Source of the DNA: an uncultured virus (IMG/VR IMGVR_UViG_3300010163_003618)
Lineage: Duplodnaviria > Heunggongvirae > Uroviricota > Caudoviricetes
IMG/VR virus record: IMGVR_UViG_3300010163_003618
Strand: one strand, 5' to 3'
Length of the DNA stretch: 64,000 nt
Positions 1 to 18,949 of this stretch are shown in pieces. How positions within the stretch are numbered: position 1 is the stretch's first letter; every line of letters starts with the position of its first letter. The translations under genes and the position numbers were made by a program. The notes under the pieces were generated by a model. It saw nothing but the letters and a program-made list of their open reading frames with translations, was not told the origin of the DNA and made no database searches.

Positions 1-627
1 ATGTTAAACATTACACTTCAGACATTGTTATTAACAGCAGTACAAGTGATTATAGTAAAATTACTTGTGGATAAATTTAATAATTTGGATAATGAAGTTG
101 ACTTAGCATTTAAAGTAAATGATATAATCACTTTGGTGATTATATCATTTTTATGTAATTTAGAAATATCAGCATTATGGAGTAATAAATTACATATAAT
201 TCAGTTATGGGTAACTACATTATATTTATTGATACAAGGATATACAGATTCAAAGACAAAACAAGTGTATAGTATTATAAACTACATAACATTAGGTTTA
301 AACATAATACTATTAATAATATCATGTATAAAGTTTAAATTATTAATACCATTACCAATTTTTATAGTATTATTTGTGTTATTTGTAATATGCATATTAA
401 GGGGGATAGGTGCCGGTGATATATTCGTTTATGTAATAATAGCTATAAATTATTTAATTTTTAAGGCTGAATTTTCTTATATTATAATAGCATTAAATTT
501 ATTGTTATCACAAGTGCTATTTATAATATTTAACATAAAGATTTTTATTAAGAATAAAAAAGAAAAAAGAGCACTTATACCATATATACTATTGGCATGG
601 GTATTATTACTACCAACATTAGCATAA
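1..627 (+). CDS. Prepilin peptidase-like (A24) polytopic membrane aspartic peptidase
   Basis: Multi-TM protein with first Asp (YTDSKTKQV), GxGD motif (GIGAGD) and C-terminal ALIPYI resembling the PFxP motif; start lies at the window edge. Confidence 0.65.
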   Translation: MLNITLQTLLLTAVQVIIVKLLVDKFNNLDNEVDLAFKVNDIITLVIISFLCNLEISALWSNKLHIIQLWVTTLYLLIQGYTDSKTKQVYSIINYITLGLNIILLIISCIKFKLLIPLPIFIVLFVLFVICILRGIGAGDIFVYVIIAINYLIFKAEFSYIIIALNLLLSQVLFIIFNIKIFIKNKKEKRALIPYILLAWVLLLPTLA

Positions 628-690
628 ATAGGATTAAATAAAAATTAAAAAACGAACAAGACAGATAACAGAAAGGCAAGGAAAGCTAAA

Positions 691-1881
691 ATGGGCAATA
701 TGGAAATTGAAAACATGGACAAAATAAGATTATACAAAATGATGTATAATAATCTAGCAATATTAGCACCTACAGTAGTATCATATAAAACAAACAATGA
801 GATAGTGATAGTAGACTTAGAAGGTAATGTGCTTGATAGGGGTACTTATAAAGAATTAAGCATATTAGGTGGATTTGCAATACATAAGGATAGTAATTCT
901 GATATAATAACAATTAGCAACTACTCAGGAAATAAAAAAATAGAAATAGGTAAGAGCAAAAACAAGTTTAACTTTGACTTAGGGATAAATTCACTAGAAA
1001 TACATTCTTTTGAAGAAATTGGTGAATCATTTTTAGCACTAGGTTTAATAAATGGAATTTTAATATTAAACAAGTATTGCGAAAAGGTAGCCCTGCTTAA
1101 ACATTGCAGATACATTAAGATGTTAAAAGAAAATGAAATAGGATGTTGGTTCCAATATGTACTATATTCAGAATATCATTATAATAGGGCATATGCAAGT
1201 AAAATTTCAAATAAAATTGAAATCTACGGAGGTTTTGAATTAGATGATGAGTACAGTTTAATATCTACAGAATTGGAAACATTTAATAGGGGTATAGCAT
1301 TAAATAAGAATAATTCACCTTCATTAAAATATAAATTAGCAAGGCATGGCAATATAGTAGGTAAAAAGAGCCATGGAGATATTAAGAAATCATTAAAACT
1401 AAATGGTACAAATTATTTTTTGAGTGCTGATCAAATTGGTATCAACTCAAAAATAGGATATGGTTTAATAGATAACAATGGGAATGAAATACTAAACACT
1501 GAATATGATGAAATAACACATATAGGAAGTTATAATTTCATATTAGAATCAAGAGGATACTTATGTATATTTAACACTAAGAAAAATCAAGTAATATTTG
1601 ATTGGAGCACAGTAGAAAAAGCAAGTCAACATGAAACACTTCCTATAACAATTGTGCAAACAAAAGATGGCAACTTTTATATAATAGATATAAATGATAG
1701 GATATTTGAATACAATGAGATTACAAAATATTTCAATTGTTATAGGTGCAAAGAAGATGAAACATATTTGAGGATAGATTTACCATCATACATTAAAAAA
1801 TATGTAACAACTACACTTATTCCAGTAACAAACGTAGGCAAGATAGCAGAGTTAAATAAATGTACATGGGAAAAGATATAA
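691..1881 (+). CDS. Hypothetical beta-rich protein with a WG-repeat-like segment
   Basis: 396 aa ORF; YGLIDNNGNEILNTEYDEI resembles a WG/KWG repeat. Confidence 0.5.
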   Translation: MGNMEIENMDKIRLYKMMYNNLAILAPTVVSYKTNNEIVIVDLEGNVLDRGTYKELSILGGFAIHKDSNSDIITISNYSGNKKIEIGKSKNKFNFDLGINSLEIHSFEEIGESFLALGLINGILILNKYCEKVALLKHCRYIKMLKENEIGCWFQYVLYSEYHYNRAYASKISNKIEIYGGFELDDEYSLISTELETFNRGIALNKNNSPSLKYKLARHGNIVGKKSHGDIKKSLKLNGTNYFLSADQIGINSKIGYGLIDNNGNEILNTEYDEITHIGSYNFILESRGYLCIFNTKKNQVIFDWSTVEKASQHETLPITIVQTKDGNFYIIDINDRIFEYNEITKYFNCYRCKEDETYLRIDLPSYIKKYVTTTLIPVTNVGKIAELNKCTWEKI

Positions 1882-2112
1882 AAATAATTGACAAAGCTAA
1901 AAATTAATTGACATTTTTCAATTCCAAGTAAGCTTTATGAAACATTAAAAAGACAACATTATTTAAACTTGTGATGTAAAAATATGTACTTGTGATTAAA
2001 CACATAAACATTAGGAACAAATAGACGTACATTAAGATATTTATTTGAAGGCTTTAAATAATTCTCTTATATCAATAGAAAGAAAAATTTATTTAAAGTT
2101 GGAGAAAAGTAT

Positions 2113-2520
2113 ATGAGTACATTGGAGAGACAGTTGTTACAGTTAATTTTTGTAAGGGTTACAGCATTAAATGGTGAAGAGACAGAGGCGGATTTAAACT
2201 TAGTTATTTCAGAAAATATAATGAGAGACAACTTAGATGAATTTATCAAAAATAATATCATAGCGGAAACACTTAAAGGTGAGCCAGATTTAGAAGAAAA
2301 GATAATAGACAATGGAGTGTTCGTTTATAACTATAAATCATTGATTAATTGGAGTTTTAATAGGTATAACACTATAGCAGACGCAGTAAGAGCAGCTATT
2401 AAAACTTTGAATGCCACTATTATATGTAATGGGAAGGTCATAACTTATGACATTTTAGATGATGAATCAGCATATTATATAGATACCACTGATAATAAAA
2501 TGAAAATTATCACAATATAG
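2113..2520 (+). CDS. Hypothetical protein
   Basis: 135 aa ORF with GGAG SD. Confidence 0.6.
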   Translation: MSTLERQLLQLIFVRVTALNGEETEADLNLVISENIMRDNLDEFIKNNIIAETLKGEPDLEEKIIDNGVFVYNYKSLINWSFNRYNTIADAVRAAIKTLNATIICNGKVITYDILDDESAYYIDTTDNKMKIITI

Positions 2521-2534
2521 GAAAGGAATACAAC

Positions 2535-2927
2535 ATGTCAAAATTAAGTGATGAACTTATAGTTTTGAATAAAGATAAAGTTTATAGTAGTTATTACACT
2601 AGAGGTTGTAAGATAGTCCCAGACTGGAGGCTTGTATCAATTTCTATAGGTATACCTGAAAACTTTAAGGGAGAAATTTGTAGAGAACTTAATCCACCTG
2701 ATTTTCTATTAAGGGGATATAAGAATGGTGCAATAGACGAAAAGGAATATGAGGAGATATATCAACAGCAGATACTAAGTAAGCTTGACCCTTTAGAAAT
2801 ATATAATAAGCTTAAGGGTAAAGTAATATTATGTTACTGTGGCAAAGATAAATTTTGCCACAGACATTTAGTATTAAAGTGGTTAGGAGAAAACCTAGGT
2901 AAAGACATAATAGGTGGAGAAATATAA
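2535..2927 (+). CDS. DUF488 family protein
   Basis: SISIGIP, LNPP and C-terminal LCYCGKDKFCHRHLVxxWL motif. Confidence 0.75.
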   Translation: MSKLSDELIVLNKDKVYSSYYTRGCKIVPDWRLVSISIGIPENFKGEICRELNPPDFLLRGYKNGAIDEKEYEEIYQQQILSKLDPLEIYNKLKGKVILCYCGKDKFCHRHLVLKWLGENLGKDIIGGEI

Positions 2928-3008
2928 ATATTAATAAAACAAGTAGCCTATGAACACAATAGGCAATAAGTAAGTTTAATTACTTAATTCAATATAGGTG
3001 TACTAGTT

Positions 3009-3042
3009 GGCATTAACTGTGTACTAGTTGATGCCTATTTTT
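3009..3042 (+). terminator. Intrinsic terminator
   Basis: GGCATTAACT/AGTTGATGCC stem followed by TATTTTT. Confidence 0.65.
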
Positions 3043-3093
3043 ATGCATTAAAATTATGGTAAAATAAAAATTAAATTTTTATAGGAGTTAGAA

Positions 3094-3717
3094 ATGAAAC
3101 TGCATCATCATATTAAAATCGGTAAAATGCTTTTAAACAAATTAGGAGACACATATAAAATAAATAGAAAGGCATATCTATTTGGAACAGTAGCACCAGA
3201 TCTTAATTGCATATACCCAGCACATAGATTAAACTGCACAGAGGATAGATTTCATAAAAGACTAGAAATAATAGACAACACTAACATAAACATAGTAAAG
3301 TCATTCGAATTAGGTGTAATCACTCATTATATTTGTGATTACTTTTGTTATGCTCATAATATCGATTCAATAGGATTAATGCATAAGAGATATGAGAAAA
3401 ACTTATATAGATTCTTCAATAAACATATTAAAGAAATTAAATTTAATGATGAAAAGATAGAATCAATATGGAATAAAAATAAGAGAGTAGTGTCAAACAA
3501 ATTAAAGAACACTAAAGAAAATACAAATATACACTGCGATTTCATACTAGAACAACTAAAATTAATGAATGAAGCATACAATAATGATCTTATACGTTAT
3601 AATAAAAATTGGATATTTAGTATAAATCAAATAGAAAAAGATATGCATTATACTATGGTGGTATTAGGTAACCTGATAGATATGCTACTTGAACCACCAT
3701 TAGCATTAGCTGCATAA
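3094..3717 (+). CDS. Zinc-dependent phospholipase C family protein
   Basis: N-terminal H, GTVAPD, LGVITHYICDYFCYAH and HKRYE zinc-ligand motifs. Confidence 0.8.
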   Translation: MKLHHHIKIGKMLLNKLGDTYKINRKAYLFGTVAPDLNCIYPAHRLNCTEDRFHKRLEIIDNTNINIVKSFELGVITHYICDYFCYAHNIDSIGLMHKRYEKNLYRFFNKHIKEIKFNDEKIESIWNKNKRVVSNKLKNTKENTNIHCDFILEQLKLMNEAYNNDLIRYNKNWIFSINQIEKDMHYTMVVLGNLIDMLLEPPLALAA

Positions 3718-3815
3718 TTAAAATACATAAGAGTGTTGTAAATTAAAAACGCATAATAAAGCATACTTAAGACAAAAGATGTAAGGCATAAAATTAAATT
3801 TTTGGTTTTTAGGGG

Positions 3816-3844
3816 TTGACAAAAGATAATAAGTATGTTATAAT
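3816..3844 (+). promoter_or_regulatory. sigmaA-type promoter (extended -10)
   Basis: TTGACA-17 nt-TATAAT with TG before -10. Confidence 0.85.
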
Positions 3845-3859
3845 AATTATGTTATTAAG

Positions 3860-4036
3860 TACAGGATTGGCACTGAAGTCAGAGTTTAGTGTCTCTTGGA
3901 AACAATACGTAAGGTAAATAAATTTACAGGGTAGACTTCAGGAGGAAGTCATACTGCTTAAGGTGGGTAAGAGGCAGACTACAGGAAAAGTGAACATAAC
4001 GTTTGCGAAAGTGGGGTTCAAATCCTCTTTTCCTGA
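3860..4036 (+). ncRNA. Structured RNA ending in a D-armless tRNA-like module
   Basis: CAGGAAAA(3982)/TTTTCCTG(4035) acceptor-like stem, GGGG-TTCAAAT-CCTC T-arm, upstream hairpins GCACTGAA/TTTAGTGT and GACTTC/GAAGTC; directly after a promoter. Confidence 0.45.
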
Positions 4037-4095
4037 CTAGCACTATGCAAGTGCAAAGATAATTAAAATTAAGGAAATGTAAAGGAAATAAATAA

Positions 4096-4194
4096 ATGAA
4101 GCATGTATTTAATACAACTACATCCACAAATTCAAGTAATTCAAGTTCAAGTACATCGACGAATTTGGATAAACTTAATATGTGTAAAATGTAG
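4096..4194 (+). CDS. Unannotated 32-aa Ser/Thr/Asn-rich peptide MKHVFNTTTSTNSSNSSSSTSTNLDKLNMCKM
   Basis: AAGGA SD 9 nt upstream of ATG; translated by hand. Confidence 0.5.
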   Translation: MKHVFNTTTSTNSSNSSSSTSTNLDKLNMCKM

Positions 4195-4227
4195 TGTGTT
4201 AGATAAAACCAATACAAGACAAAAATC

Positions 4228-4262
4228 AAGTGTCAGTGGATTATCTTCACTGACACTTTTTA
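4228..4262 (+). terminator. Intrinsic terminator
   Basis: AAGTGTCAGTGGA/TTCACTGACACTT stem plus T-tract. Confidence 0.85.
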
Positions 4263-4296
4263 TTTTGTAAATAAATTAGAAAAGGAGAAATGCAAT

Positions 4297-4398
4297 ATGG
4301 ACACAAGCTCAAGTTCAAGTGATTCATCGGACAATAATTCAAACACAAGAACTAATAATTTAAAACAATATAGAGTTTATAAGAAATCATCAAAATAA
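4297..4398 (+). CDS. Unannotated 33-aa Ser/Thr/Asn-rich peptide MDTSSSSSDSSDNNSNTRTNNLKQYRVYKKSSK
   Basis: AAGGAG SD 9 nt upstream of ATG; translated by hand. Confidence 0.5.
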   Translation: MDTSSSSSDSSDNNSNTRTNNLKQYRVYKKSSK

Positions 4399-4474
4399 AG
4401 AGTGGGCAAAAGATGGTTTATTAAAGTGCATCAAAAATTTTTCAAAAATAAATGAAAAATTTTTAAAATAAGTA

Positions 4475-4503
4475 TTGACAAAAGAAGTTTAGGGTATTAT
4501 AAT
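4475..4503 (+). promoter_or_regulatory. sigmaA-type promoter of the tRNA cluster
   Basis: TTGACA-17 nt-TATAAT. Confidence 0.85.
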
Positions 4504-4587
4504 GTGTATATAAGGTTGAGAGAGGAAAAGAAAGTAATAAAAGAAGAAATAGAAAATCAACCTTATAATAAATGTGATAAACATTAT

Positions 4588-4660
4588 TCCTATGTAGCTC
4601 AACAGGTAGAGCACGGAGCTGTTAACTCTGGGGTTAGGCGTTCGAGTCGCCTCGTAGGAG
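4588..4660 (+). tRNA. tRNA-Asn(GTT), no encoded CCA
   Basis: Cloverleaf TCCTATG/CGTAGGA, anticodon loop CTGTTAA, GTTCGAGT T-loop. Confidence 0.95.
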
Positions 4661-4686
4661 TGCAGACTATACATGGTGATAAAGAT

Positions 4687-5102
4687 ATGAAAATAATATT
4701 CTTAGATGTAGATGGGGTATTGAATCAACTTCAGAGATACCATGTAGATGAAAATTGTGTGAGGGAACTTGCAAAAATTTATTCCACGGATACAAGAATA
4801 GTATTAATATCATCATGGAGATTAGGTTTCTCAAGAAACATTAATCAGTGTAGTCCTCAGGTAAAAAATCTAATCACCTGCTTGAATAAGTACAACATGA
4901 ATATAATGTATTGTACAGAAAAATTAGGTGACAGAAGAAAGGAAGTATTAAACTGGTTACAAGGAAAGAATGTTGAATCCTATATAGTACTTGATGATGA
5001 CAAGTCGGAGTATTCATCATTAGAGGAGTTAAATATTTATATAACAAACTCAAAACTGGTTTAACATCAAAAGATATTAAAAACATCAAGAAAATGTTGT
5101 AA
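4687..5102 (+). CDS. HAD-domain protein (Swiss-army-knife RNA-repair type) with apparent -1 frameshift near the C-terminus
   Basis: IIFLDVDGVLN, LISSWR, YIVLDDD motifs; true start 4687; frame stops at 5064 but the expected GLT tail (TGLTSKDIKNIKKML) continues in the -1 frame from AAAA at 5052-5055. Confidence 0.75.
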
Positions 5103-5109
5103 TATACAT

Positions 5110-5182
5110 GCTGGAGTAGCTCAATTGGTAGAGCAAGTGCCTTGTAAGCACTAGGTTGTGGGTTCGAGTCCCACCTTTAGCT
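5110..5182 (+). tRNA. tRNA-Thr(TGT), no encoded CCA
   Basis: GCTGGAG/CTTTAGC acceptor, AGTGC-CTTGTAA-GCACT anticodon arm, GTTCGAGT. Confidence 0.95.
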
Positions 5183-5183
5183 T

Positions 5184-5313
5184 TTGGTAATGCCAAGTGG
5201 CACAGACCAATAGTAGTCAGTGCCTGTAACGACATGCCAAGGCTATGATGACGAAGCCATTAGATGGCAGGCACCAGTCATTAGGGTGGTAACCTTTGTA
5301 TAGGGATATACAA
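5184..5313 (+). ncRNA. Unassigned structured RNA between tRNA-Thr and tRNA-Ser
   Basis: Nested stems TTGGT/ACCAA, TGCC/GGCA, GTGCCTG/CAGGCAC, GGCT/AGCC, TTGTATA-GGGA-TATACAA; GC-richer than flanks; no ORF. Confidence 0.4.
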
Positions 5314-5331
5314 TGAATAACCATTAACATT

Positions 5332-5389
5332 TGTGATTCAGACAGCAATTAAAACAAATCAACTTGAAATTGATAAAAACAGAATCATG
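5332..5389 (+). ncRNA. Armless tRNA-like element carrying a Ser(TGA) anticodon stem-loop
   Basis: TGTGATTC/GAATCATG closing stem, ATCAA-CTTGAAA-TTGAT hairpin, no D or T arm. Confidence 0.45.
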
Positions 5390-5405
5390 TAAAAACAGAA
5401 TCATG
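5374..5405 (+). repeat. 16-bp perfect tandem duplication TAAAAACAGAATCATG x2
   Basis: Read directly from sequence. Confidence 0.9.
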
Positions 5406-5419
5406 TAAAAATATTATAT

Positions 5420-5504
5420 GCTGCATAAGCGAAAGGTTAGCAGGCTCATTGGAAATGAGTTGGTCTAGTTAATAGGCTTGCAGGTTCGAATCCTGTGTGC
5501 AGCG
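5420..5504 (+). tRNA. tRNA-Ser(GGA), atypical D arm
   Basis: GCTGCAT/GTGCAGC acceptor, GCTCA-TTGGAAA-TGAGT, long variable arm, GTTCGAAT; A at position 8 and weak D stem. Confidence 0.75.
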
Positions 5505-5529
5505 TTACCAGTGTAAGGGGAGAATAACC

Positions 5530-5715
5530 ATGAAAGATTGCAAAGGTCAGGAACTCAGTATTGGGGACAGTGTAGTTTATGTAGCAAGAAAACAGTCTGA
5601 TGCAATACTTCAAACTGGTGAAATCACTAAATTTTACAAGGGTAAATTTAATAGAGATGAATGTAGCGTGGGAAAGCAGTCCCATATCAACAGTTCAAGA
5701 ATAATGAAAATTTAA
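5530..5715 (+). CDS. Small phage-type hypothetical protein (MKDCKGQELSIGDSVVY...)
   Basis: GGGGAG SD before ATG 5530; the 5497 start in the track overlaps the tRNA. Confidence 0.7.
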   Translation: MKDCKGQELSIGDSVVYVARKQSDAILQTGEITKFYKGKFNRDECSVGKQSHINSSRIMKI

Positions 5716-5722
5716 AAAATTT

Positions 5723-5810
5723 GCGAGTTTGGCAGAGTTGGATTAATGCACTTGTCTTGAAAACAAGCAGCCCCTGAAAAGGCTCTAGGGTTCGAATCCC
5801 TAAGCTCGCG
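5723..5810 (+). tRNA. tRNA-Ser(TGA)
   Basis: GCGAGTT/AGCTCGC, CTTGT-CTTGAAA-ACAAG, long variable arm, GTTCGAAT, G73. Confidence 0.95.
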
Positions 5811-5812
5811 TT

Positions 5813-6091
5813 ACAGGTTAGTAAGATGTTTATTATTAAAATAGCATCTGAAGAAAGTACCATACTTTGGAAACGAAGTTAAAAGCCTAAAACCCTCTTT
5901 AAAATTTCCAAGATAAGGTTGAATTTACAGAAAAGTGAGTACTGGAGTAGTCATGTACGAAGAAGCGAAAGCCTAGTAAGTAGTTAGTAAACCGACGACA
6001 GTCTGTGAAGGGAGAAGTTGGGCAACGCAATTGGAAAGCGGGACAATGCAGTTACCAGATCAGCAGATGGGTTTCTGAGGGGGTCACCTGT
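5813..6091 (+). ncRNA. ~280-nt unassigned structured RNA (weak RNase P RNA-like hallmarks)
   Basis: Ends pair (ACAGGT/ACCTGT); internal stems AGATGT/GCATCT, TTGGAAA/TTTCCAA, TTTACAGA/TCTGTGAA, GGCAAC/GTTACC; exactly fills the gap between two tRNAs. Confidence 0.55.
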
Positions 6092-6116
6092 CAAAAATTA
6101 ATTGATTATTAATTAT

Positions 6117-6204
6117 GCTTGGGTACTCAAATTGGTGAAGAGGCGCCCCTGCTAAGGGTGTAGGTCAAGAAATTGGCATGTGGGTTCAAGTCCCACTCCA
6201 AGCG
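6117..6204 (+). tRNA. tRNA-Ser(GCT)
   Basis: GCTTGGG/TCCAAGC, CGCCC-CTGCTAA-GGGTG, long variable arm, GTTCAAGT, G73. Confidence 0.95.
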
Positions 6205-6206
6205 TT

Positions 6207-6247
6207 AAAATATGGTGCATAAGTTATGTCTTATGTACCATATTTTA
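6207..6247 (+). terminator. Terminator closing the tRNA cluster
   Basis: AAAATATGGTGCATAAG/CTTATGTACCATATTTT inverted repeat. Confidence 0.75.
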
Positions 6248-6330
6248 TACTTAAAAATATTTAAGAGGATTTTAAAAATTTTATAGAAAAGGATATAAAA
6301 GTAAGACATATCAGCTTTTTAAAAACTACA

Positions 6331-7080
6331 ATGAGAAAAATAAAAGTATTGAATTTATTATTAATAGTAATAGGGTGGGCAACAGTTGGTTTAACACTGT
6401 ATAATATGACCTTACAACATAAAAGTCAAGCAGAATATTTATATAAAAATAAATCATTAGTAAAACAAGTTAAACAATTAGAAAAATTCATAGAAACACC
6501 TTTAGAAGAACAGATAACATTTAGATCATACTCAAGCCTAAAGTCACTTGTAGAGGTAAGTATGTTAGTAGAAATTCCATTAGAAACAAATATCAAGGAC
6601 ATATTATTTATAGGTGATTCAAGGTTTGTAGGTATGGAAGAAGCAAATACAAATGGATATACATTCTTTTGTGAAGTAGGAAAAGGGTACAGCTGGTATA
6701 TAGACAATTTAGATAAAATAGAATCATTAATATCAGACAATACAATCATAATATTTGGTTTAGGAGTAAATGACTTAAGTAATATAGAAAATTATTTAAA
6801 GCTTAAAAATTCAGAGTACTTTGACCAAATATATTATTTGTCAGTCAATCCAGTAGATGAAGTAAAAGAAGCAGAATATGGATATACAGTAACAAACAAT
6901 AGTATAGACAGCTTCAATTCAAGAGTACAAGAAGTATTTAAAGACAGATACATTGATACAAATTCAGTATTAAAAGAAAGTGGGTTTGAAACAAAAGATG
7001 GATTACATTATACAGAAGAAACATACACGGATATTTATGAGTATATAATAAATAATTTACCTCTTATTGACAAAATATAA
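6331..7080 (+). CDS. Membrane-anchored SGNH/GDSL hydrolase
   Basis: N-terminal TM, LFIGDS, GLGVND and DGLHY blocks. Confidence 0.85.
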   Translation: MRKIKVLNLLLIVIGWATVGLTLYNMTLQHKSQAEYLYKNKSLVKQVKQLEKFIETPLEEQITFRSYSSLKSLVEVSMLVEIPLETNIKDILFIGDSRFVGMEEANTNGYTFFCEVGKGYSWYIDNLDKIESLISDNTIIIFGLGVNDLSNIENYLKLKNSEYFDQIYYLSVNPVDEVKEAEYGYTVTNNSIDSFNSRVQEVFKDRYIDTNSVLKESGFETKDGLHYTEETYTDIYEYIINNLPLIDKI

Positions 7081-7095
7081 TTAATATGTTATAAT
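7067..7095 (+). promoter_or_regulatory. sigmaA-type promoter
   Basis: TTGACA-17 nt-TATAAT with TG extension. Confidence 0.85.
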
Positions 7096-7117
7096 AATTA
7101 AAAAGAGGTAAAATGAT

Positions 7118-7540
7118 ATGAAAAAGTTATTAGTAATAGCATTGATAGTTGCAACAAGTGTAATGTTTACAGGCTGCGGAGAAGAATATAAGGTAGAACA
7201 GTTAAGAGAAGAAATACAGGCACTGGAAGAACAGAAAGAAAACCTCAATGCTGAAATCACGGAACTTGAATCTTATGATGTTGCATTGAAGGAAGAAACA
7301 GGCACTGCTAAGTATGTATTAACAATAGAGATCAAACAGGTTCACTATTCCCTTAATACTGATAACATCTTAAAAGACAGTATGAATGCAATAACCATTC
7401 AGATACCAGTAGATAAAGAGTATTATGATTCAGTAGAGATAGGAGACAAATTATCTGATAAATTCAGAACAGGCAGCTACATAATTTCTGGTTCATTAGG
7501 CTCTTGGAACATTTCAGTAAAAGACAAAGAAATTCAATAA
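7118..7540 (+). CDS. Lipoprotein with coiled coil
   Basis: Signal peptide with lipobox FTGC followed by heptad region. Confidence 0.7.
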   Translation: MKKLLVIALIVATSVMFTGCGEEYKVEQLREEIQALEEQKENLNAEITELESYDVALKEETGTAKYVLTIEIKQVHYSLNTDNILKDSMNAITIQIPVDKEYYDSVEIGDKLSDKFRTGSYIISGSLGSWNISVKDKEIQ

Positions 7541-7572
7541 AAGCAGAAAATTAAGAAAGTAGGTAAGTCAAT

Positions 7573-8406
7573 ATGGCATACAGCAGTAATAAGGAATATC
7601 TCATAGAAGTATTTAAGGATACTGAAAATTGGTATAAGACAGACAAAGAATTGATAGAGCATGTCAATGAAAGTAAAAGACACACAGAAATATACAAAGA
7701 GAAAGATTACCCTGACATTACATATGTAACTTGCAAGGGAAAACCAGCAAAAATAATGGTAACAAAGGGCAGAACATTTGAATCGGCAATAAAGCTTATG
7801 GAAGAATACCCTAATAAAAGGGTATTAGTCCATAATTTTGCATCAGCAACAAACCCTGGTGGTGGAGTATTAAAGGGATCCTCGACGCAGGAAGAAAGTT
7901 TATGCAGATGTTCAACATTATACCCAACGCTTACTACATCAGAATGTAATAATGGTTACTATAAGTATCATAAAAATCTTCACAATATGTTATATACGGA
8001 CACCTGTATATATTCACCAAACATATTAATAATCAAGTCAGACACAATTAAACCTGAAAGATTACCCAAAGATAAGTGGAGAACAGTTGACATAATCACA
8101 TGCCCAGCACCTAATTTAAGGGATGAAGCAGCTAAAACAAGTGATAAGCAATTGTTTGAAATTCATAAAAATAGAGCAAGACATATGATTACCATTGCAA
8201 TAGCACATGGTGTGGATGTACTGGTACTTGGAGCATTTGGTTGCGGTGCATTCAAAAATAAACCAGAAATTGTTGCAAGGGCATATAAGGAAGTAATAAT
8301 GGACTTCAGAAACTTCTTTGATGCTATAGAGTTTGCAGTTTATTGTAAAGCAACTGAAGACGAAAACTATAAAACTTTCAATAGGATCTTGGGAAACATT
8401 AAATAA
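7573..8406 (+). CDS. TIGR02452/DUF2263 bacterial PARG-type macrodomain (ADP-ribose glycohydrolase)
   Basis: NFASATNPGGG, QEESLCRCS, YSP, LVLGAFGCGAFKN motifs. Confidence 0.9.
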   Translation: MAYSSNKEYLIEVFKDTENWYKTDKELIEHVNESKRHTEIYKEKDYPDITYVTCKGKPAKIMVTKGRTFESAIKLMEEYPNKRVLVHNFASATNPGGGVLKGSSTQEESLCRCSTLYPTLTTSECNNGYYKYHKNLHNMLYTDTCIYSPNILIIKSDTIKPERLPKDKWRTVDIITCPAPNLRDEAAKTSDKQLFEIHKNRARHMITIAIAHGVDVLVLGAFGCGAFKNKPEIVARAYKEVIMDFRNFFDAIEFAVYCKATEDENYKTFNRILGNIK

Positions 8407-8431
8407 TCAATAAAAATAGGGGAATAAAAGC

Positions 8432-8902
8432 ATGAGTGAAAAGACTAAACCATTTACAAATGTAGTAATCAGAGAAGAAATCAAAAACAACAAGCAGTCT
8501 GGATACTATGTAACTGTTGATTACATGTATGGTGATGCAGACGGGTATAATGCTGTGGAGTATGGACCTTTCAAGAAAGGCCAGGAAAAATATTTAGCTG
8601 CATTTGCAAATATGCTGGAGGAATGTGTAGAGGCATATCCTAACGGTAGAGGCGGAGATGATAATTATGAAAATGAGGTGCCTGCATTTGCAGTATGGGC
8701 AATGTTGAATGACTATAAGAAATATAACTATACAATTGATGGGGATAAGTTAACTAAGGAAGACATTGGCATAATAGAGAACGTCGGATTTGAAGTTGAA
8801 ACAACACCAGATGGTTGGGGAACACAAGCTACAATCTGCAGTTACAAAGCAATTTATTATGATGCAGACACAAAAAAGAAATTTAATGTAAGTATATCAT
8901 AA
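8432..8902 (+). CDS. Hypothetical protein
   Basis: 156 aa ORF in operon; YMYGDADG motif. Confidence 0.6.
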   Translation: MSEKTKPFTNVVIREEIKNNKQSGYYVTVDYMYGDADGYNAVEYGPFKKGQEKYLAAFANMLEECVEAYPNGRGGDDNYENEVPAFAVWAMLNDYKKYNYTIDGDKLTKEDIGIIENVGFEVETTPDGWGTQATICSYKAIYYDADTKKKFNVSIS

Positions 8903-8921
8903 CAGAAAGAAAGAGAAAACC

Positions 8922-9296
8922 ATGGGTAGTGAGATTAAACAATGGACAGTTTGTACAACAATAGCACATTTTAAGGGTAGCAAAACATTACCAAAATGTA
9001 ACTTCTTTATAAATGTGGAAGGCACAGAAGATGAATTAAAAGCACTTCTAATGCGCATGGTAGAAATTAACAAAAAGAGTGTGGCAGAATATTATCCTGA
9101 AGACACATGGATGGATGGTACAGCTGACATAAGTCATGTGCAAATGAGATATGGTGGACAATTATATTGTGCATTTTCAATGCATAAGGACACCTTAATA
9201 AGCTATACAGCTGTAACACATATGAACTTCCATAAAATCAGTGAACTCATGGAAAGTAATGATAAGTTACACGCAGCAACCTTGATGGATGGTTAA
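8922..9296 (+). CDS. Hypothetical protein
   Basis: 124 aa ORF in operon. Confidence 0.6.
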   Translation: MGSEIKQWTVCTTIAHFKGSKTLPKCNFFINVEGTEDELKALLMRMVEINKKSVAEYYPEDTWMDGTADISHVQMRYGGQLYCAFSMHKDTLISYTAVTHMNFHKISELMESNDKLHAATLMDG

Positions 9297-9310
9297 GATA
9301 GGAGGAAAAA

Positions 9311-9850
9311 ATGAAAAGAGCATTGGTAGTAATTGATATGCAAAATGGTTTCATAAACGAGAATACAGCACATTTGTCTAAGAAGCTTATTGAGTTTATG
9401 AGCATGACACAGTTTGATAAAACAATTTTTACTAGATTCATTAACAGACCTGAAACGGCATGCTATAAATTTGAAGGTTACCATGATTGTATGGAAGGAT
9501 CAAGTGAAGCTGAAATTATACCAGAATTGAAATACATGGGGGATGTTGTGTTTGACAAGGATAAATTCAGCTGCTGGTACGGAAGATTTAAGGAGTATAT
9601 TAAGATTAATAAATTTGATAAGCTGTACTTTGTAGGAGTAAACACTGGATGTTGTGTATTAAACAGTGTGCTGGATGCTTATAATGACTTACAGGATTGT
9701 GCAGTCATAAGTGACTTATGTGGATCATCTAACGGAAATCATTCACACCAGATTGCATTGGAAGTTCTTGCAGAGAATATTACTAAGAGCAGGGTATTAA
9801 CATTTGATGAAGCAGTAAAAGAAATCATGGGTGACTGCAAAGGAGAATAA
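9311..9850 (+). CDS. Isochorismatase/cysteine hydrolase family protein
   Basis: LVVIDMQNGF, catalytic K (DKDKFS), GVNTGCCV. Confidence 0.85.
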   Translation: MKRALVVIDMQNGFINENTAHLSKKLIEFMSMTQFDKTIFTRFINRPETACYKFEGYHDCMEGSSEAEIIPELKYMGDVVFDKDKFSCWYGRFKEYIKINKFDKLYFVGVNTGCCVLNSVLDAYNDLQDCAVISDLCGSSNGNHSHQIALEVLAENITKSRVLTFDEAVKEIMGDCKGE

Positions 9851-9855
9851 AAACA

Positions 9856-10356
9856 ATGGAGTATTTTATATCAGACTTCCATATAGGTGATGCAAACATT
9901 TTAACTTATGAGCATAGACCATTCAATTCATTGCATAGCATGAAAGAAACAATTATAACAAATATACAAAAAACAGTAACTCCATGTGATACTTTGTATA
10001 TACTTGGTGACTTAGGAAATACATCAATATTGGATGAAATACCAGGCAAGATAATCGTTGTTTGTGGCAATCATGATAACTATGAAGAAATCAAGAATAC
10101 ACATCCAGATATTTATGTATCCAAGTATCCCATTATGATTGATAACATGTGGTTATCACATGCACCTATAGGATATGTTCCACCTGAATGTCCATACATT
10201 AACATTCATGGTCACTTACATAGGTTTCAATACGGTTTAATTGGAAGAAATTGGGAAGAAGGCAATAGATACTTCAATGTATCAGTAGAAAATATTAACT
10301 ATACACCTATTTCTAAAGATGAGATCATAGAGAAAATAAAATATAAGAAGGTATAA
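9856..10356 (+). CDS. Calcineurin-like metallophosphoesterase
   Basis: SDFH, LGD, GNHD, LSHAP, NIHGHLH motifs. Confidence 0.9.
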   Translation: MEYFISDFHIGDANILTYEHRPFNSLHSMKETIITNIQKTVTPCDTLYILGDLGNTSILDEIPGKIIVVCGNHDNYEEIKNTHPDIYVSKYPIMIDNMWLSHAPIGYVPPECPYINIHGHLHRFQYGLIGRNWEEGNRYFNVSVENINYTPISKDEIIEKIKYKKV

Positions 10357-10358
10357 TA

Positions 10359-11204
10359 ATGTATAACATGACTGAAATGAATGGAAAATTACAAATACTG
10401 GTGGATGACACTGAATTAAACCTAGATAAGACATTTGATTGTGGTCAGGCATTCAGATGGGTAAAACAACCATCAGGAGAGTGGGTAGGAGTTGTAAACG
10501 GCAAGATTTGGGTACTAGAACAAAATAATAATGTAATTCATACAAATTTGGATAAAAACTCAGAGAAAGAGTTAGTTAATTATTTAAATTTAGATATGGA
10601 TTATACAAATAAAATAAACAGTTTATCTCTAACAAAATTTGAACTAAATGCCTACAATGTGGCAATGGGCATTCACATATTAAGACAAGATCTGTTTGAA
10701 ACAATGGTGACATTTTTAATGTCTTCCTGTAACACAATGAGAAATATAAGAAGCATTGTAAATAAACTATGTGAAGCATATGGAGAAGATATTACAACAG
10801 AGCATAACAAAAAAGAAATAAAACAGAAGTCATTTCCAACATTGGAAAGACTAGCAACAGTCAGTGCAAATGAATTTAGAACATTTAGCATGGGATTCAG
10901 AGCAGACTATTTGTACAGCATGTGCCAAAGATTAATCAACAATAGATCCCTGCTAGATAAAATAATACAATGCAATTACAAAGACTCATTAAGAATATTG
11001 AAGGAGTTTACAGGAGTAGGCAGTAAAGTAGCTGAATGTATAGAACTATTTTCACTTCATCACATTGAAGCATTTCCAATTGACACTCATATCAAGGCAA
11101 TAATCAATAAAGAATATGATGGTGCAATTGATTTAAGTAGATTTAAAGATGTAGCAGGAGTAATACAACAGTATTTATTTTACTATAAAGCATTCAATAA
11201 ATAG
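10359..11204 (+). CDS. 8-oxoguanine DNA glycosylase (OGG1-type, HhH-GPD)
   Basis: TFDCGQAFRW N-domain, GFRA, GVGSKVAECI HhH, FPIDTH, AGVIQQYLF. Confidence 0.9.
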   Translation: MYNMTEMNGKLQILVDDTELNLDKTFDCGQAFRWVKQPSGEWVGVVNGKIWVLEQNNNVIHTNLDKNSEKELVNYLNLDMDYTNKINSLSLTKFELNAYNVAMGIHILRQDLFETMVTFLMSSCNTMRNIRSIVNKLCEAYGEDITTEHNKKEIKQKSFPTLERLATVSANEFRTFSMGFRADYLYSMCQRLINNRSLLDKIIQCNYKDSLRILKEFTGVGSKVAECIELFSLHHIEAFPIDTHIKAIINKEYDGAIDLSRFKDVAGVIQQYLFYYKAFNK

Positions 11205-11208
11205 GATG

Positions 11209-11250
11209 GGCAGAGTGCAAGTTTAAACATAACAAGCACTCTGCTTTTTA
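11209..11250 (+). terminator. Intrinsic terminator
   Basis: GCAGAGTGC/GCACTCTGC plus TTTTT. Confidence 0.75.
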
Positions 11251-11334
11251 TTTGCTAAAAAATAAGCATAAAGTACAATAGAAAGAAATTTTTTAGTAAA
11301 TAAAAGACTATGACAGGCAGGGAGGAATATTAGT

Positions 11335-12099
11335 ATGAGAACTACAGTTTATGGAAGACAGACACTAATAATGGCAGAAGGTAAGTTGTTAGGAATAAAT
11401 TTAGGATATAATTTCTACTATGAGCATGAAGAAGGAACCTTAGAACTTGTACATAATATCAATAGAACAAGTCAAGCACACCTAGCAAATAAGATAGTTA
11501 AGCAGGGATGTAAAGATACGAAGTCGATTAAATTTTTATATAGGCTTAAAAAGGAAATTAAAAAAGAAGAAAAAATCATGCAAAGATATAAAAATACACC
11601 CTATGGAGAGTATACTATATCTTGTAGTATAGAACCATTCATTAGAAAAATAATAATTGACAATTCTAAACTAAAACGAGAATCAGTATATAGGAATTAT
11701 TTATTGAACGATGGTGGATATACATTAGTAATACTAGATAATTCATTACATACTGATTACTGGGCTAACAAAATAGAAAACAAAAGAAAATTCTGTGAAG
11801 GCAACTTCTTTTATATGGAAGATTACAATAATGGAGTTAAAAATAATCCTGGTTACATATTAAGAGGCAAAGGAGCAAATAAATTTACATCAGGAAATGT
11901 GCAATTTGCAGCAGCTTGGGGCAGTAGCGGTTTAATATTGTTAATAGATAGACAATCTGATGATACTTACAACATATCAGAAAGTATTGAAAAAGCAATT
12001 AAAAGTGGAAGCTTAGCAATAGTTCCAGAACAATCAAAATTATTCAATGACAGAGGATGCTGTCTAATATTATTAGATGAGGCATACAAGCCAAGATAA
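11335..12099 (+). CDS. Hypothetical protein
   Basis: 254 aa ORF with GGAGG SD. Confidence 0.65.
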   Translation: MRTTVYGRQTLIMAEGKLLGINLGYNFYYEHEEGTLELVHNINRTSQAHLANKIVKQGCKDTKSIKFLYRLKKEIKKEEKIMQRYKNTPYGEYTISCSIEPFIRKIIIDNSKLKRESVYRNYLLNDGGYTLVILDNSLHTDYWANKIENKRKFCEGNFFYMEDYNNGVKNNPGYILRGKGANKFTSGNVQFAAAWGSSGLILLIDRQSDDTYNISESIEKAIKSGSLAIVPEQSKLFNDRGCCLILLDEAYKPR

Positions 12100-12134
12100 G
12101 GCAATAAATGAGTAATTAAAGGAGATTTAGAGAA

Positions 12135-12365
12135 TTGATTAACAGGTCATTAGATAATGAAAATGTAATAGAAGAAGGGCAATTACTTTATGAAACATTA
12201 TTAAACAATGTGCATCAAGGAAACATAGAAGAAATGTTTAATTATTTTAAGAATAATGTAACATACATAGATTCATACGGATACACAACTGAAAAGAAAT
12301 TACTAAACTATTGTACATACAAACCAGAGTTAACAAAGAAAATGTATGGTGCATATAAAAAATAA
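12135..12365 (+). CDS. Hypothetical protein (possibly truncated)
   Basis: TTG start after AAGGAG SD. Confidence 0.45.
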   Translation: MINRSLDNENVIEEGQLLYETLLNNVHQGNIEEMFNYFKNNVTYIDSYGYTTEKKLLNYCTYKPELTKKMYGAYKK

Positions 12366-12737
12366 GGATATAAAGAGAGAAAAAACAATAGAGATTATTA
12401 TATACATACCTTAATAATTTGGCATAACAAGGATTAAGAGTATTATTACATGATTAAATAATTGTTTTATACAAGATGAATTAGTAGGAAAATTAACAAT
12501 AAACACAGACGAAATATTAAAGATGCAATGGAAAGATGATACCACATATAATGAATTCTGGCATAATCAGTTACAAACCCGTAATAGGCTAAATAAATTT
12601 TAAACAGGCATTTACAAAGTTTAGTAAGTGCCTATTTTTATACATAAAAGTATAATAAAAAGATTTTTAATTTTTATTTGGTAAAATTTTACATTATAAG
12701 TATACATTAAAATAAGACAAGGAGACAAATTAAAACT

Positions 12738-13394
12738 ATGTCAAACAATTATAACACATGGGGTGGAAAAAACAATAAGTGGGGAAATAGGAATAGGAAA
12801 GGGAGAGGTAACAACAGCAAAAGGACTAGATATACTACAAACAAGTTATTCAATGTAATAGCAGGTGGAATATTTTTATTCATGCTTGCTGGTTTTGGGT
12901 GGAGTATTTTAAAATCAGGATTTGAAACTGCATTCCAGTTCAGAGACAATGTAGGACAAGTAAGGGACATCATACAGTATGTAACAAGCGATGGAACAAC
13001 TCAGAAATGTAATGTAAAATTAGAAGGCAGCATTGATATTTCCGAAGATGACATAGAAGGTGTATTAAATTATATTTATGATTCAATTTCAAAAAATAAT
13101 GAAAACCTAATAATACTTGATTCAGATGATATAAAAAAAGAGAGTGGCTACAAGAAAAACATAGTAAATAGACTAGACAAGTCATCGAGTAGTACAATAA
13201 CATTTGCAATAGTTTATGATGAAATAATGAATCAAGAGCAGGCAGAGCAGGAATTAGAAAGAATAAGAGAGTTGATAACAAATAACAGTGAAGAGTTAAG
13301 TAGTACAAAGTACAACAGTGTAATGTCAGGAGCACAGATATATAACTCATCAGATTACAGATTTATAATTACTATAACATTTGCAACAAAATAA
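12738..13394 (+). CDS. Single-pass membrane protein with basic N/G/R-rich N-terminus
   Basis: 218 aa, one TM (VIAGGIFLFMLAGFGWSIL). Confidence 0.65.
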   Translation: MSNNYNTWGGKNNKWGNRNRKGRGNNSKRTRYTTNKLFNVIAGGIFLFMLAGFGWSILKSGFETAFQFRDNVGQVRDIIQYVTSDGTTQKCNVKLEGSIDISEDDIEGVLNYIYDSISKNNENLIILDSDDIKKESGYKKNIVNRLDKSSSSTITFAIVYDEIMNQEQAEQELERIRELITNNSEELSSTKYNSVMSGAQIYNSSDYRFIITITFATK

Positions 13395-13409
13395 ATTTTA
13401 AATTAAGTA

Positions 13410-13438
13410 TTGACAAAATATTTTAAATGTGATATGAT
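13410..13438 (+). promoter_or_regulatory. sigmaA-type promoter for the initiator tRNA
   Basis: TTGACA-17 nt-TATGAT with TG extension. Confidence 0.8.
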
Positions 13439-13470
13439 ATAAGAGTGTTAGGGAAAGGGTTGAGAAATAA

Positions 13471-13544
13471 CGCGGGGTGGAGCAGTCTGGAAGCTCATCG
13501 GGCTCATAACCCGAAGGTCACAGGTTCAAATCCTGTCCCCGCTA
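13471..13544 (+). tRNA. Initiator tRNA-fMet(CAT)
   Basis: C1:T72 mismatch, A11:T24, three G:C pairs in the anticodon stem (TCGGG-CTCATAA-CCCGA). Confidence 0.95.
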
Positions 13545-13621
13545 TTAACTGGTCTTCTGTTCTGAAACTCCATTATCTATAATAGAGAAATCAGTTACCT
13601 AAACTAGAAGAAAAAGATAGT

Positions 13622-13660
13622 TAAGGGCTTAGTTATATAATGACTAAGCCCTTAGTTATT
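13622..13660 (+). terminator. Hairpin/terminator after tRNA-fMet
   Basis: TAAGGGCTTAGTTA/TGACTAAGCCCTTA. Confidence 0.7.
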
Positions 13661-13734
13661 GCCTAAAAATAGGCATATCTTAATAAGATAGGGATTTTTA
13701 ATTTTTAATTTAAAGAAAAGAGAGGTACAATAAG

Positions 13735-13974
13735 ATGTTCACTGAGGCAGTTGTAAAAATCAACTCAATTGATGCAGTTAAGAAATTTTGTGATATATCT
13801 ACAAAGCAAGATTTTGATATTGACATCATCAATGGGAGATACATAGTAGACGCCAAGTCAATAATGGGAATTTTCAGTTTAAACTTAACTGAAAATATTG
13901 AACTACGTATACATGAAAGCGAAGACAAGTGTAAGGATTTCTTAAACCAGATAGAGCAATTCAGGGTAAGATGA
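13735..13974 (+). CDS. HPr-like protein (regulatory Ser retained, catalytic His absent)
   Basis: VDAKSIMGIFSL motif; no GLHAR motif. Confidence 0.85.
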   Translation: MFTEAVVKINSIDAVKKFCDISTKQDFDIDIINGRYIVDAKSIMGIFSLNLTENIELRIHESEDKCKDFLNQIEQFRVR

Positions 13975-14039
13975 TAAAAATAAGTACACATTAGGAAAAT
14001 TAATATACCAAAAACCTACATAGGTTAAAAATGACCCTT

Positions 14040-14075
14040 AAAATGTTGAGTGTGGAAATGCATTCAACATTTTTA
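14040..14075 (+). terminator. Intrinsic terminator
   Basis: AAAATGTTGAGTG/CATTCAACATTTT. Confidence 0.65.
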
Positions 14076-14315
14076 TTTTTACTTATTTATCAATATAAAA
14101 ATGCCTTAAAACTATCATTGAGATCAAATAAGGTCAGTTTTAAATTTTTAAAAGTTAAAAAAAATTTTGATTTTAACTATACATTAAAGCAGGAGGGGGA
14201 GACAAAGGACACAATATAAATTAAACAATAAAAATTAACATTAACAATGTATTAAGTTATATTTACATAGGTAGCAAGAAAGTAAGCTTGTTACATAAAA
14301 ATGGAGGTAAAAAAT

Positions 14316-14849
14316 ATGGGAGCAAAAAGAACAGAGTATGCACTAGTAGGTAGATATATGAGTGGTAAAACAGTAGTAGGATATCATTTACAGGCACTTG
14401 AAACTGGTAAGAATGGTAGGTATACAAATGAACAGTTTGCATATCTAGTTGGTAGGGATCAAGTAGTTAACTGTTCTGGGCAAATTTACAATGACACAGT
14501 CTTGTACAGAGGTACAAATGGAACGGAAATAAATGCATTACCAGTTATGCAGGAAGATGGTTCAATATCAAGAACAAACAATGTAGGACACATCAGACGT
14601 GATGATACTGCTCAGGATGTAATGAATAAGTTGACATTTATAGCAAAGATTAAAGAAGGTAGAAACACAGTAGGTTACGTAGTACAAAACAATGGTGGTC
14701 AACAAAAATCAGTATCTTATAATCAGGCATATGAACTTGCACGTTCAGGTAAAATAGGCAATGCAAGGGCTCAGGTGTATCAGGGCAAGCCAATTATTAA
14801 AGGTGTAAATTGTGATTTAAACAGTTTACCTATTGTTAATAATAATTAA
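14316..14849 (+). CDS. Protein of two DUF3892-like repeats
   Basis: Internal repeat (GKTVVGYHL...INALP / GRNTVGYVV...LNSLP); GGAGGT SD before 14316. Confidence 0.6.
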   Translation: MGAKRTEYALVGRYMSGKTVVGYHLQALETGKNGRYTNEQFAYLVGRDQVVNCSGQIYNDTVLYRGTNGTEINALPVMQEDGSISRTNNVGHIRRDDTAQDVMNKLTFIAKIKEGRNTVGYVVQNNGGQQKSVSYNQAYELARSGKIGNARAQVYQGKPIIKGVNCDLNSLPIVNNN

Positions 14850-14959
14850 GTGTTTGTGTATTAATGTAATGGTGGCACTGCTTAAAAAGGCGGTGCTACT
14901 ATTATATACAGAGAAATTAATATAGAAAGATTTTTATTAATTTAAAAGGAGACTAAAAG

Positions 14960-15451: not shown

Positions 15452-15471
15452 GAAAGGGTGGGAGATTAAAT

Positions 15472-15855: not shown

Positions 15856-15873
15856 AGTAAAGGAATAGGCATT

Positions 15874-17538: not shown

Positions 17539-17539
17539 A

Positions 17540-18826: not shown

Positions 18827-18949
18827 TTACATTTAAATATAAGAGATATATTTAATTAATTTTGATTTTCAAGATTACCAAGAAAAGGCATTTAAAAATA
18901 TACACATGAAAAAACAATAAAAAATATTTAGCATAGGTAGGGCTAAGAA

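Follow-up and report, generated by a model that had tools for sequence, protein, structure and literature searches.

A proposed knotted RNA between two phage tRNA genes: most likely an enlarged member of an apparently undescribed compact RNA family

We analysed a stretch of viral DNA of 64,000 nucleotides, here called the window, in which a long spacer separates two tRNA-Ser genes. Positions 5888–6092 of this spacer most likely represent an enlarged member of a compact phage RNA family that is apparently undescribed. The family sits in the tRNA arrays and non-coding islands of Clostridia phages; its short form is about 128 nt long, and its central element is a pseudoknot that ties the 5′ end of the RNA to the loop of a 3′ hairpin.

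The spacer, its setting and the RNase P question

The window, at 31% GC, encodes a Ter-type stress cluster (TerD, TelA, vWA-TerF and a C-C bond lyase), helicases and six tRNAs. Nine of its genes (691–14849) are matched by genes of a 268-kb IMG/VR record (G001), where their order is conserved, and contigs of up to 451 and 673 kb bear relatives of two window proteins; we infer that its source is a jumbo phage of gut Clostridia. Further relatives of this phage come from a Lachnospiraceae MAG (G002) and from 26 metagenome loci; the tRNA array of the window is seen again in two long loci among these, L086 and L087 (L086–L099 were searched as 20-kb loci). Locus searches with single proteins returned no relatives; alignments did recover them. 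The MAG contains several phage-type tRNA arrays (L014, L015, L059–L066) with 94 tRNA matches and appears to be contaminated with more than one jumbo phage. Within the tRNA array of the window lies a gene for a HAD_SAK_2 protein, an RNA-repair-type phosphatase (4687–5064), and near it a microbial PARG gene (7573–8406); the two are suggestive of counter-defence. The features to which we refer, by position in the window, are as follows.

4475..4503, plus strand: sigma-70-type promoter-like site, TTGACA-17-TATAAT, 12 of 12 positions matching, as a consensus match only
5722..5811, plus strand: tRNA-Ser(TGA), upstream neighbour, without an encoded CCA
5813..5887, plus strand: 5′ segment with a hairpin (5824–5849) and a GAAA-capped hairpin (5864–5879)
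5888..5891, plus strand: A-rich leader TAAA, running into stem C
5892..5899, plus strand: 5′ strand of stem C (pseudoknot), pairing with 6077–6084 over 8 bp, with covariation in the family
5905..5911, plus strand: 5′ strand of stem D, pairing with 6031–6037 through 7 Watson–Crick pairs
5912..6030, plus strand: loop of stem D, 119 nt against 43–46 nt in the short members
6031..6039, plus strand: 3′ strand of stem D and a conserved GC
6040..6065, plus strand: region matching stem F, the UGAGAA loop and the second pseudoknot strand, features not convincingly retained
6066..6092, plus strand: 3′ hairpin E, GATGGGT (6066–6072) with ACCTGTC (6086–6092), 7 bp, 2 of them G–U
6116..6205, plus strand: tRNA-Ser(GCT), downstream neighbour
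6206..6247, plus strand: 18-bp inverted repeat directly after the last tRNA

The preliminary description presented 5813–6091 as an ornate RNA between two tRNA-Ser genes. Its account of the place is accurate: the stretch is flanked by tRNA-Ser(TGA) and tRNA-Ser(GCT), and the motifs it named are all there, ACAGGT at 5813, GAAGAAAGTACCAT at 5850, ACCCTCTT at 5892, GCGAAAGC at 5965, ATGGGTTTC at 6067, GAGGGGGT at 6077 and ACCTGT at 6086. The spacer has 40% GC against the 31% of the window, and 38–44% against 20–28% in neighbouring non-coding spacers; the other tRNA spacer has 36%. Internal stops occur in every frame, and the sole ORF of at least 50 aa that touches the spacer is one of 58 aa on the minus strand, running across the tRNA.

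Is the fold itself ornate? The minimum free energy of −61.2 kcal/mol corresponds to a z-score of −0.63, with 59 of 200 shuffles equally stable, and the core alone gives a z-score of −0.82. Because single-sequence folding is at chance level, the ornate character is not demonstrable from the sequence alone. Rfam at E ≤ 10 returned two matches on the spacer, both on the minus strand and at chance level; the SNORA25 match (E 0.058, minus strand) was taken as chance. Scanning 5812–6116 with the models that the preliminary description had singled out (RNase P, GOLLD, ROOL and group I intron) produced no Rfam match at E ≤ 10.

Could the spacer nevertheless encode a highly diverged phage RNase P RNA, as was first proposed? 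It sits in a tRNA array, it has the motif GAAGAAAGU after a hairpin, and it resembles bacterial RNase P RNA of class A/B (RF00010 and RF00011) in size, in this GAAAGU-like motif following a 5′ hairpin, and in GTAAACC. At E ≤ 10, Rfam gave no RNase P match on 5812–6116 (305 nt) or on window 1–20000, and no RF00010 match in the related 268-kb record. Diverged RNase P RNAs can score below model thresholds, as PMC8172020 reports, and profile and motif tests were added for this reason. As controls we cut 28 rnpB genes from 30 Clostridia loci. Five motifs, each matching 24–28 of the 28, were used (a sixth regular expression, matching 1 of 28, was discarded), and the spacer holds one of the five, GTAAACC. 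The conserved regions around P4, J11/12 and J18/2 were not encountered in it, and nhmmer with the rnpB profile found no match there. With hmmsearch the spacer ranked 445th among 1,000 shuffles, and its glocal scores were those of background, equalled by 113 of 500 shuffles for the whole RNA and by 572 of 800 for the S-domain.

We also looked for a P4 pseudoknot with a single bulged U and with the 3′ strand of P1 directly after it. In all 28 rnpB controls the base triplet that follows GAGGAAAGTCC is complementary to the one that precedes GGCTT. The candidate strands in the window can pair only with a mismatch or additional bulges, and 11 nt separate them from the terminal helix downstream; they do not form an RNase P P4, and the proposed 3′ strand of P4 is instead the 5′ strand of a hairpin that covaries in the family described below. 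The best P2 candidate in the spacer has 4 bp, two of them G–U, and the long-range knot of C and E has no counterpart in bacterial RNase P RNA. Lacking a model match, a proper P4, a convincing P2 and the conserved regions, with one motif of five and background profile scores, the spacer is extremely improbable as a divergent RNase P-like RNA.

The short RNA family

In related phages (L058/L111, L086, L087) tRNA-Ser(TGA) is followed by another element than in the window, which indicates that spacers are exchanged. The family was reached through another slot. A covariance model built from the window core alone gave, as its best non-self match in 391 kb, L059:2965–3085 (E 0.022), a sequence that begins right after tRNA-Ala in a related phage contig (G002 contig C292). 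By eye it starts like the window core, and its stem D is paired through bases other than those of the window; nhmmer found no link between this spacer and the window element. The pattern common to the two occurs at 106 viral loci. Three of them (L201, L212 and L227) match the two-sequence model at E 1e-15 to 1e-17 and the other 103 fail; as L201 and L212 are identical, the three matches amount to two distinct sequences. Blastn with L059 yielded L278, in one other of 401 Lachnospiraceae genomes, and the identical core of L278 occurs in a second genome of the same genus. The family thus comprises four distinct short sequences in six phage or prophage-like records, and window 5888–6092 matches it.

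L201/L212 immediately follows a tRNA-like gene, and the non-coding island that contains both is upstream of a terminase gene in a phage of about 41 kb; L227, in an island of similar kind, is separated from tRNA-Gln by 107 nt; and L278 is found among tRNA-like elements at a contig end, preceding one of them. For L059, L201 and L227 the element has no Rfam match at E ≤ 10.

How far does the family extend? Covariance model R3, run on 150 genomes, and blastn on 391 genomes each found only G361. Model R2 gave no match in 149 Clostridia genomes, but it missed the known G002 copy too, as did model R1. A loose pattern run on 401 genomes returned mostly noise. Exact patterns of the element found 12 short matches in viral contigs, without flanking similarity or a tRNA, another pattern found none there, and metagenome contigs gave none. 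Blastn with the element produced nothing credible among the INPHARED phages, and in the 401 Lachnospiraceae genomes nothing credible either, the yield being 10 short AT-rich matches. The short members compared with phages and plasmids gave no match to the element. In the searches of viral sequences, phages, metagenome contigs and Lachnospiraceae, no long-form homologue of the window copy was found.

The four short members share six helices with 32 pairs, and 97.6% of the cells are paired. Two-sided changes occur in 11 of the 32 pairs; none of 500 shuffles reached as high a value, and slid controls gave 31–52%, although these controls lean in favour of the structure, which was proposed from the same four distinct sequences. 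RNAalifold recovered D and E unprompted. Stem C is formed between the 5′ end and the loop of hairpin E at the 3′ side, while the loop of D and the one that follows UGAGAA are connected by a second pseudoknot. This second pseudoknot and the UGAGAA loop are conserved in all four short members; in L278 the pseudoknot consists of 8 bp of different sequence, misaligned in the alignment that was counted. The members also share a GNRA hairpin and two conserved blocks, GAUAAGGCAA and AAGCC. We discarded a GGUU/AACC helix within the D loop, as L278 does not have it. The short form is a compact double pseudoknot with many invariant unpaired bases. On this comparative evidence the family is, with high confidence, a real structured RNA, and the covariation of its short members, together with the existence of homologues, supports the earlier suggestion of a new class of non-coding RNA.

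Might such a fold be catalytic? Its compactness and its invariant unpaired bases would suit a new class of small ribozyme that cuts near its own 5′ end and matures the 3′ ends of phage tRNAs, a theta-like role with another fold. In two of the four short sequences (L059 and L201/L212) the element starts no more than about 2 nt from the 3′ end of a tRNA or tRNA-like gene. Such sites are occupied by theta ribozymes, minimal HDV-like knotted RNAs at the 3′ ends of gut-phage tRNAs (described in PMC10879173). On the other hand, the start lies about 76 nt after the tRNA in the window and 107 nt after it in L227, L278 precedes its tRNA-like element, and the window lacks several of the bases that are invariant in the short form. 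Theta ribozymes, moreover, have the nested double pseudoknot of HDV, with G1 at most 5 nt from the tRNA end and a catalytic C; a descriptor of our own, run without a positive control, detected nothing HDV-like where the tRNA ends, either in the window or in L059, and Rfam gave no match to such ribozymes on the spacer. A ribozyme thus seems unlikely.

The order of the stems invites a further comparison. Group I introns possess helices in the order P3, P4, P7, and C, D and E, with A-rich junctions around D, follow each other in like manner, as though the RNA were the relic of a group I core retained as a folding scaffold (C as P3, D as P4, E as P7). Yet Rfam gave no group I match for the window, L059, L201 or L227. 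In the short members a single base stands where P8 and J8/7 belong, and there is no P9; the base pairs of E expected to form the guanosine site vary, and no gene is interrupted. We consider this origin quite improbable. A likeness to group II introns, noticed by eye, was likewise rejected: Rfam gave no match, and nhmmer did not align the window with the group II intron that G001 carries. The reading that we prefer remains that of a distinct, knotted RNA family.

The probable copy in the window

Does the spacer truly contain a copy of this RNA? In the fold supported by the family, the window copy keeps all three helices of the knot, ACCCUCUU finding its partner within the loop of a 3′ hairpin. 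The preliminary description had suspected a pseudoknot between ACCCTCTT and GAGGGGGT; in the family structure it is a true pseudoknot, though the pairing is nested in the minimum-free-energy fold. Stem D of the window is unlike that of all four short members in sequence. Hairpin E has a 13-nt loop, made up in part of a U-rich linker and of the strand 6077–6084, which is the 3′ side of stem C. Hairpin E was used in no search; with the window included, 35 of 35 cells are paired and four of its seven pairs show two-sided changes, and the chance expectation is 0.3–1%.

A descriptor specifying only the geometry of C, D and E, with a loop range set with the window known, matched 26 of 13,990 shuffled spacers, and none when the GCAA/GC flanks were required; without flanks it has three unrelated matches on the plus strand of the window. 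In 2.97 Mb (345 sequences, both strands, partly redundant) the flanked version found the family members and the window only. In 15 of 15 descriptor matches TAAAA stands directly before stem C, though it is not part of the descriptor. Profile blocks of the short members fall at the right positions of the window, scores as high being reached by 1 of 1,500 shuffles for the 5′ block and by 9 of 1,500 for the 3′ block. Since the family was seeded from the window, the likeness in the 5′ block and in part of the 3′ block was selected; hairpin E, the A-run and the GNRA motif are the features independent of seeding. A model built from the short members alone placed the window third of 18 matches at E = 1.1, with the correct start at 5888 and a different 3′ alignment; this score does not speak for membership, and the long insert probably exceeds the span of the model.

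Might the likeness be a coincidence in an unstructured spacer? The z-score of −0.63, the E-value of 1.1 from the unbiased model and the discovery of the family from the window itself would all allow it. Against this stand the three independent features, the tRNA-adjacent location within the same phage clade, and the failure of every one of the shuffles to match once flanks were required. We judge coincidence improbable and homology very probable: 5888–6092 would be a diverged and enlarged variant of the short family.

In what respects has it diverged? The 119-nt D loop contains a GC-GAAA-GC hairpin (5965–5972), a GNRA-like motif (6001–6017) and the conserved GCAA (6027–6030). The GNRA motif that the family has just before GCAA is met at 6001–6017, with a different stem and 10 extra bases after it. 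For the additional 75 nt or so of the loop we found no homologue. UGAGAA is absent, and the best helix for a second pseudoknot (6 bp, 2 of them G–U) is what chance would supply in a loop of 119 nt. It is because the second pseudoknot and UGAGAA are missing that we call the window copy a diverged variant, and not a typical member.

Where might the insert have come from? By eye, after seeing the sequence, we chose for comparison 19 Clostridia FMN riboswitches drawn from 30 loci. Were the insert a diverged FMN-riboswitch-like aptamer grafted into the clamp as a ligand sensor, it would account for a glocal profile that ends at 6020 (equalled by 2 of 1,500 shuffles, and for the 3′ half by 1 of 800) and for a 6-bp helix, 5903–5908 with 6014–6019, at the position of P1. 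But the score is 15 against 110–126 for true members, the 5′ half is at background (408 of 800), and Rfam gives no RF00050 match. The six-helix junction with both halves conserved was not encountered, the GNRA motif of the family itself accounts for much of the match, such a P1 and stem D would be rival pairings, and there is no gene downstream to regulate. This origin of the insert is very improbable.

A further question concerns the ends. The preliminary description had the spacer closed by a terminal helix, ACAGGT with ACCTGT. Both strands are present, and a 6-bp terminal match of this kind arises in about 2% of shuffles; ACCUGU (6086–6091), however, has a partner supported by the family other than the 5′ ACAGGU. 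It may pair with ACAGGU or with 6067–6072 in hairpin E, and since ACCTGT is the 3′ strand of the covarying hairpin with GATGGGT (6066–6072), that hairpin competes with the proposed terminal helix. By nearest-neighbour energies the nested fold is worth −61.7 against −48.6 for D and E with C unpaired; stem C is worth about −10.7 as a duplex, and base triples are left out of these energies. The 5′ segment accordingly has two choices, to pair 5813–5818 with 6086–6091 or, with ACAGGU unused, to close upon itself through 5815–5819 and 5884–5888, over the first 75 nt. No homologue of these 75 nt was found. The conserved unit is 5888–6092, in place of the extent first given, 5813–6091. In related phages, as judged by eye, modules follow tRNAs and each is closed by its own terminal helix; the spacer may likewise consist of two modules.

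This competition allows another reading, that of a decaying or re-wired copy, derived from the family, which has adopted the nested ACAGGU/ACCUGU fold and serves as a sealed spacer that isolates the folding of the tRNAs. The nested fold is the one of minimum free energy, with terminal pair probabilities of 0.72–1.0; the second pseudoknot and the UGAGAA loop are lost, there is no close homologue, and many post-tRNA spacers of related phages are, by eye, closed by terminal helices. Random decay should nonetheless have broken some of the 22 pairs of C, D and E, and these are fully paired, with sequences distinct to the member. A decaying copy is in our view fairly unlikely.

Possible function, known systems and neighbouring RNAs

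How might such an RNA be produced, and what might it do? The promoter-like site at 4475..4503 lies upstream of the tRNA array and is the likely start of the transcript; the inverted repeat at 6206..6247, uncalled in a terminator scan, is its likely end. The RNA would be co-transcribed with the tRNAs from the site at 4475. As the tRNAs lack CCA, host RNase Z, acting after tRNA-Ser(UGA), and host RNase P, acting before tRNA-Ser(GCU), would be expected to release a piece of about 300 nt; cleavage by these two enzymes belongs to established tRNA processing. It is somewhat more probable than not that the element is set free as a stable RNA.

The chain runs in this order: the 5′ strand of E, the U-rich linker, the purine-rich strand of C, one base, and the 3′ strand of E, while the A-run and the other strand of C come from the 5′ end. 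Stems C and E could stack upon one another as a circularly permuted H-type pseudoknot, with the U-rich linker occupying the deep groove of C, and the shallow groove of E taken up by the conserved A-run from the 5′ end. In classical H-type pseudoknots a U-rich loop and an A-rich loop form triples. Triples in this knot would explain the conservation of the U-run and the A-run and would clamp both ends of the RNA. So clamped, it would halt 5′-to-3′ exonucleases (RNase J) as well as 3′-to-5′ ones, and a stable RNA would result; Clostridia are expected to possess the 5′ exonuclease RNase J. A knotted viral RNA, the xrRNA of flaviviruses, can stop bacterial RNase J1 in vitro, according to PMC5760640. 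The loop of stem D would then be an exchangeable cargo, a decoy or scaffold whose binding partner might be a tRNA, part of the ribosome or a protein of host defence. For the whole mechanism, a stable end-clamped RNA with a variable cargo acting as decoy or scaffold, we propose a probability of about 0.4. The analogy with the xrRNAs of flaviviruses and plant viruses consists in a pseudoknot that engages the 5′ end and possibly in the mode of working; those RNAs belong to eukaryotic RNA viruses and have a different fold, and our family has no Rfam match.

A bolder and doubtful proposal is that of a new class of phage RNA, arising from tRNA spacers, in which a permuted triple-helix pseudoknot ties both ends together around an exchangeable cargo. 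It would be either the bacterial counterpart of the viral exonuclease-proof RNAs or a new ribozyme fold, making stable decoys, and the window would show a swap of cargo, possibly for a riboswitch-derived domain.

Is the RNA already known under another name? GOLLD (RF02032) and ROOL (RF03087) share with the window element a location in phage tRNA islands, a context that does not by itself confer membership. They are far longer, the ROOL model having 574 nt and GOLLD often more than 800 nt. Neither gave an Rfam match for the window or for three short members, while ROOL was detected in a related phage, as a positive control; the ROOL of that phage had no nhmmer match in the window. In T4, RNAC and RNAD lie in the tRNA cluster and are released by tRNA processing, and we know of no such knot in them. 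Their hosts differ, and the family has no sequence match to any INPHARED phage record. According to PMC9697503, they are small phage RNAs of unknown function; GOLLD and ROOL are described, in PMC12286853, as structured non-coding RNAs of phages and prophages, often near tRNA islands and also of unknown function.

In the literature covered, which takes in the large candidate catalogues in part, we found no description of the knotted motif, and a full-text search with one conserved 12-mer gave no match. The same holds for three of the six supplement files of PMC10690425 and six of the eight of PMC8040213. The family may figure in the candidate lists of these two sources, of PMC11109978 or of 10.64898/2026.10.21.760802, each covered in part. 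What is new is apparently the fold; the tRNA-island setting is already known.

The window and its relatives contain other modules of this general kind. A structured-looking spacer follows tRNA-Thr at 5183–5330 of the window (z-score −1.6); its motif AGGGTGGTAACC...GAATAACC recurs in the tRNA spacers of L060 and L065 and in the viral contigs L073 and L074. Next to it, 5335–5410 has the motif TGTGATTCA.ACAGCAA...AGAATCATGT, which by eye also follows tRNA-Thr in L086, L087 and L111, and is probably another small RNA module. Directly after tRNA-Ser there is a different conserved module in L058:6599–6782, L086:15231–15521, L087:4986–5169 and L064:2290–2360; for L058 and L064, nothing in Rfam reaches the gathering score. 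A conserved module of about 70 nt, closed by AGGTT/AACCT and directly following tRNAs (L064:3770–3840, L065:3409–3480, L086:15594–15660), is a candidate small RNA or ribozyme. In L201 and L227 two further shared modules lie downstream of the knotted RNA, in an order kept in both temperate phages, and one of them also matches Dulem virus 39 (PP511791).

Larger elements are present too. At L056:7453–8033 (about 137.5 kb in G001:C1) a group II intron (Rfam Intron_gpII, 47 bits) lies in a tRNA anticodon loop, an interruption that is unusual for a phage tRNA. G001 also encodes ROOL behind tRNA-Met and tmRNA (L058:16702–17320 and L056:13832–14243); the window has no ROOL behind its tRNA-Met. Non-coding inter-tRNA spacers of 400–700 nt occur at L063:4584–5988, L060:5811–6235 and 7260–7777, and L059:3093–3506, without an Rfam match; some recur in three or four of the phage contigs, with nhmmer E-values as low as 1e-49. 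They are candidates for further undescribed RNAs.

New ribozymes and riboswitches usually come from among compact RNAs that combine several pseudoknots with numerous invariant unpaired bases, and the 128-nt form, which has no Rfam family, is easy to make and to assay. A knot able to block RNase J would amount to an exonuclease-proof element of natural bacterial type, usable as a stabilising tag. Many structured RNAs without annotation reside in the tRNA arrays of gut jumbo phages, and the knotted family bears on the purpose of those that accompany phage tRNA islands, GOLLD, ROOL and the RNAC and RNAD of T4 among them.
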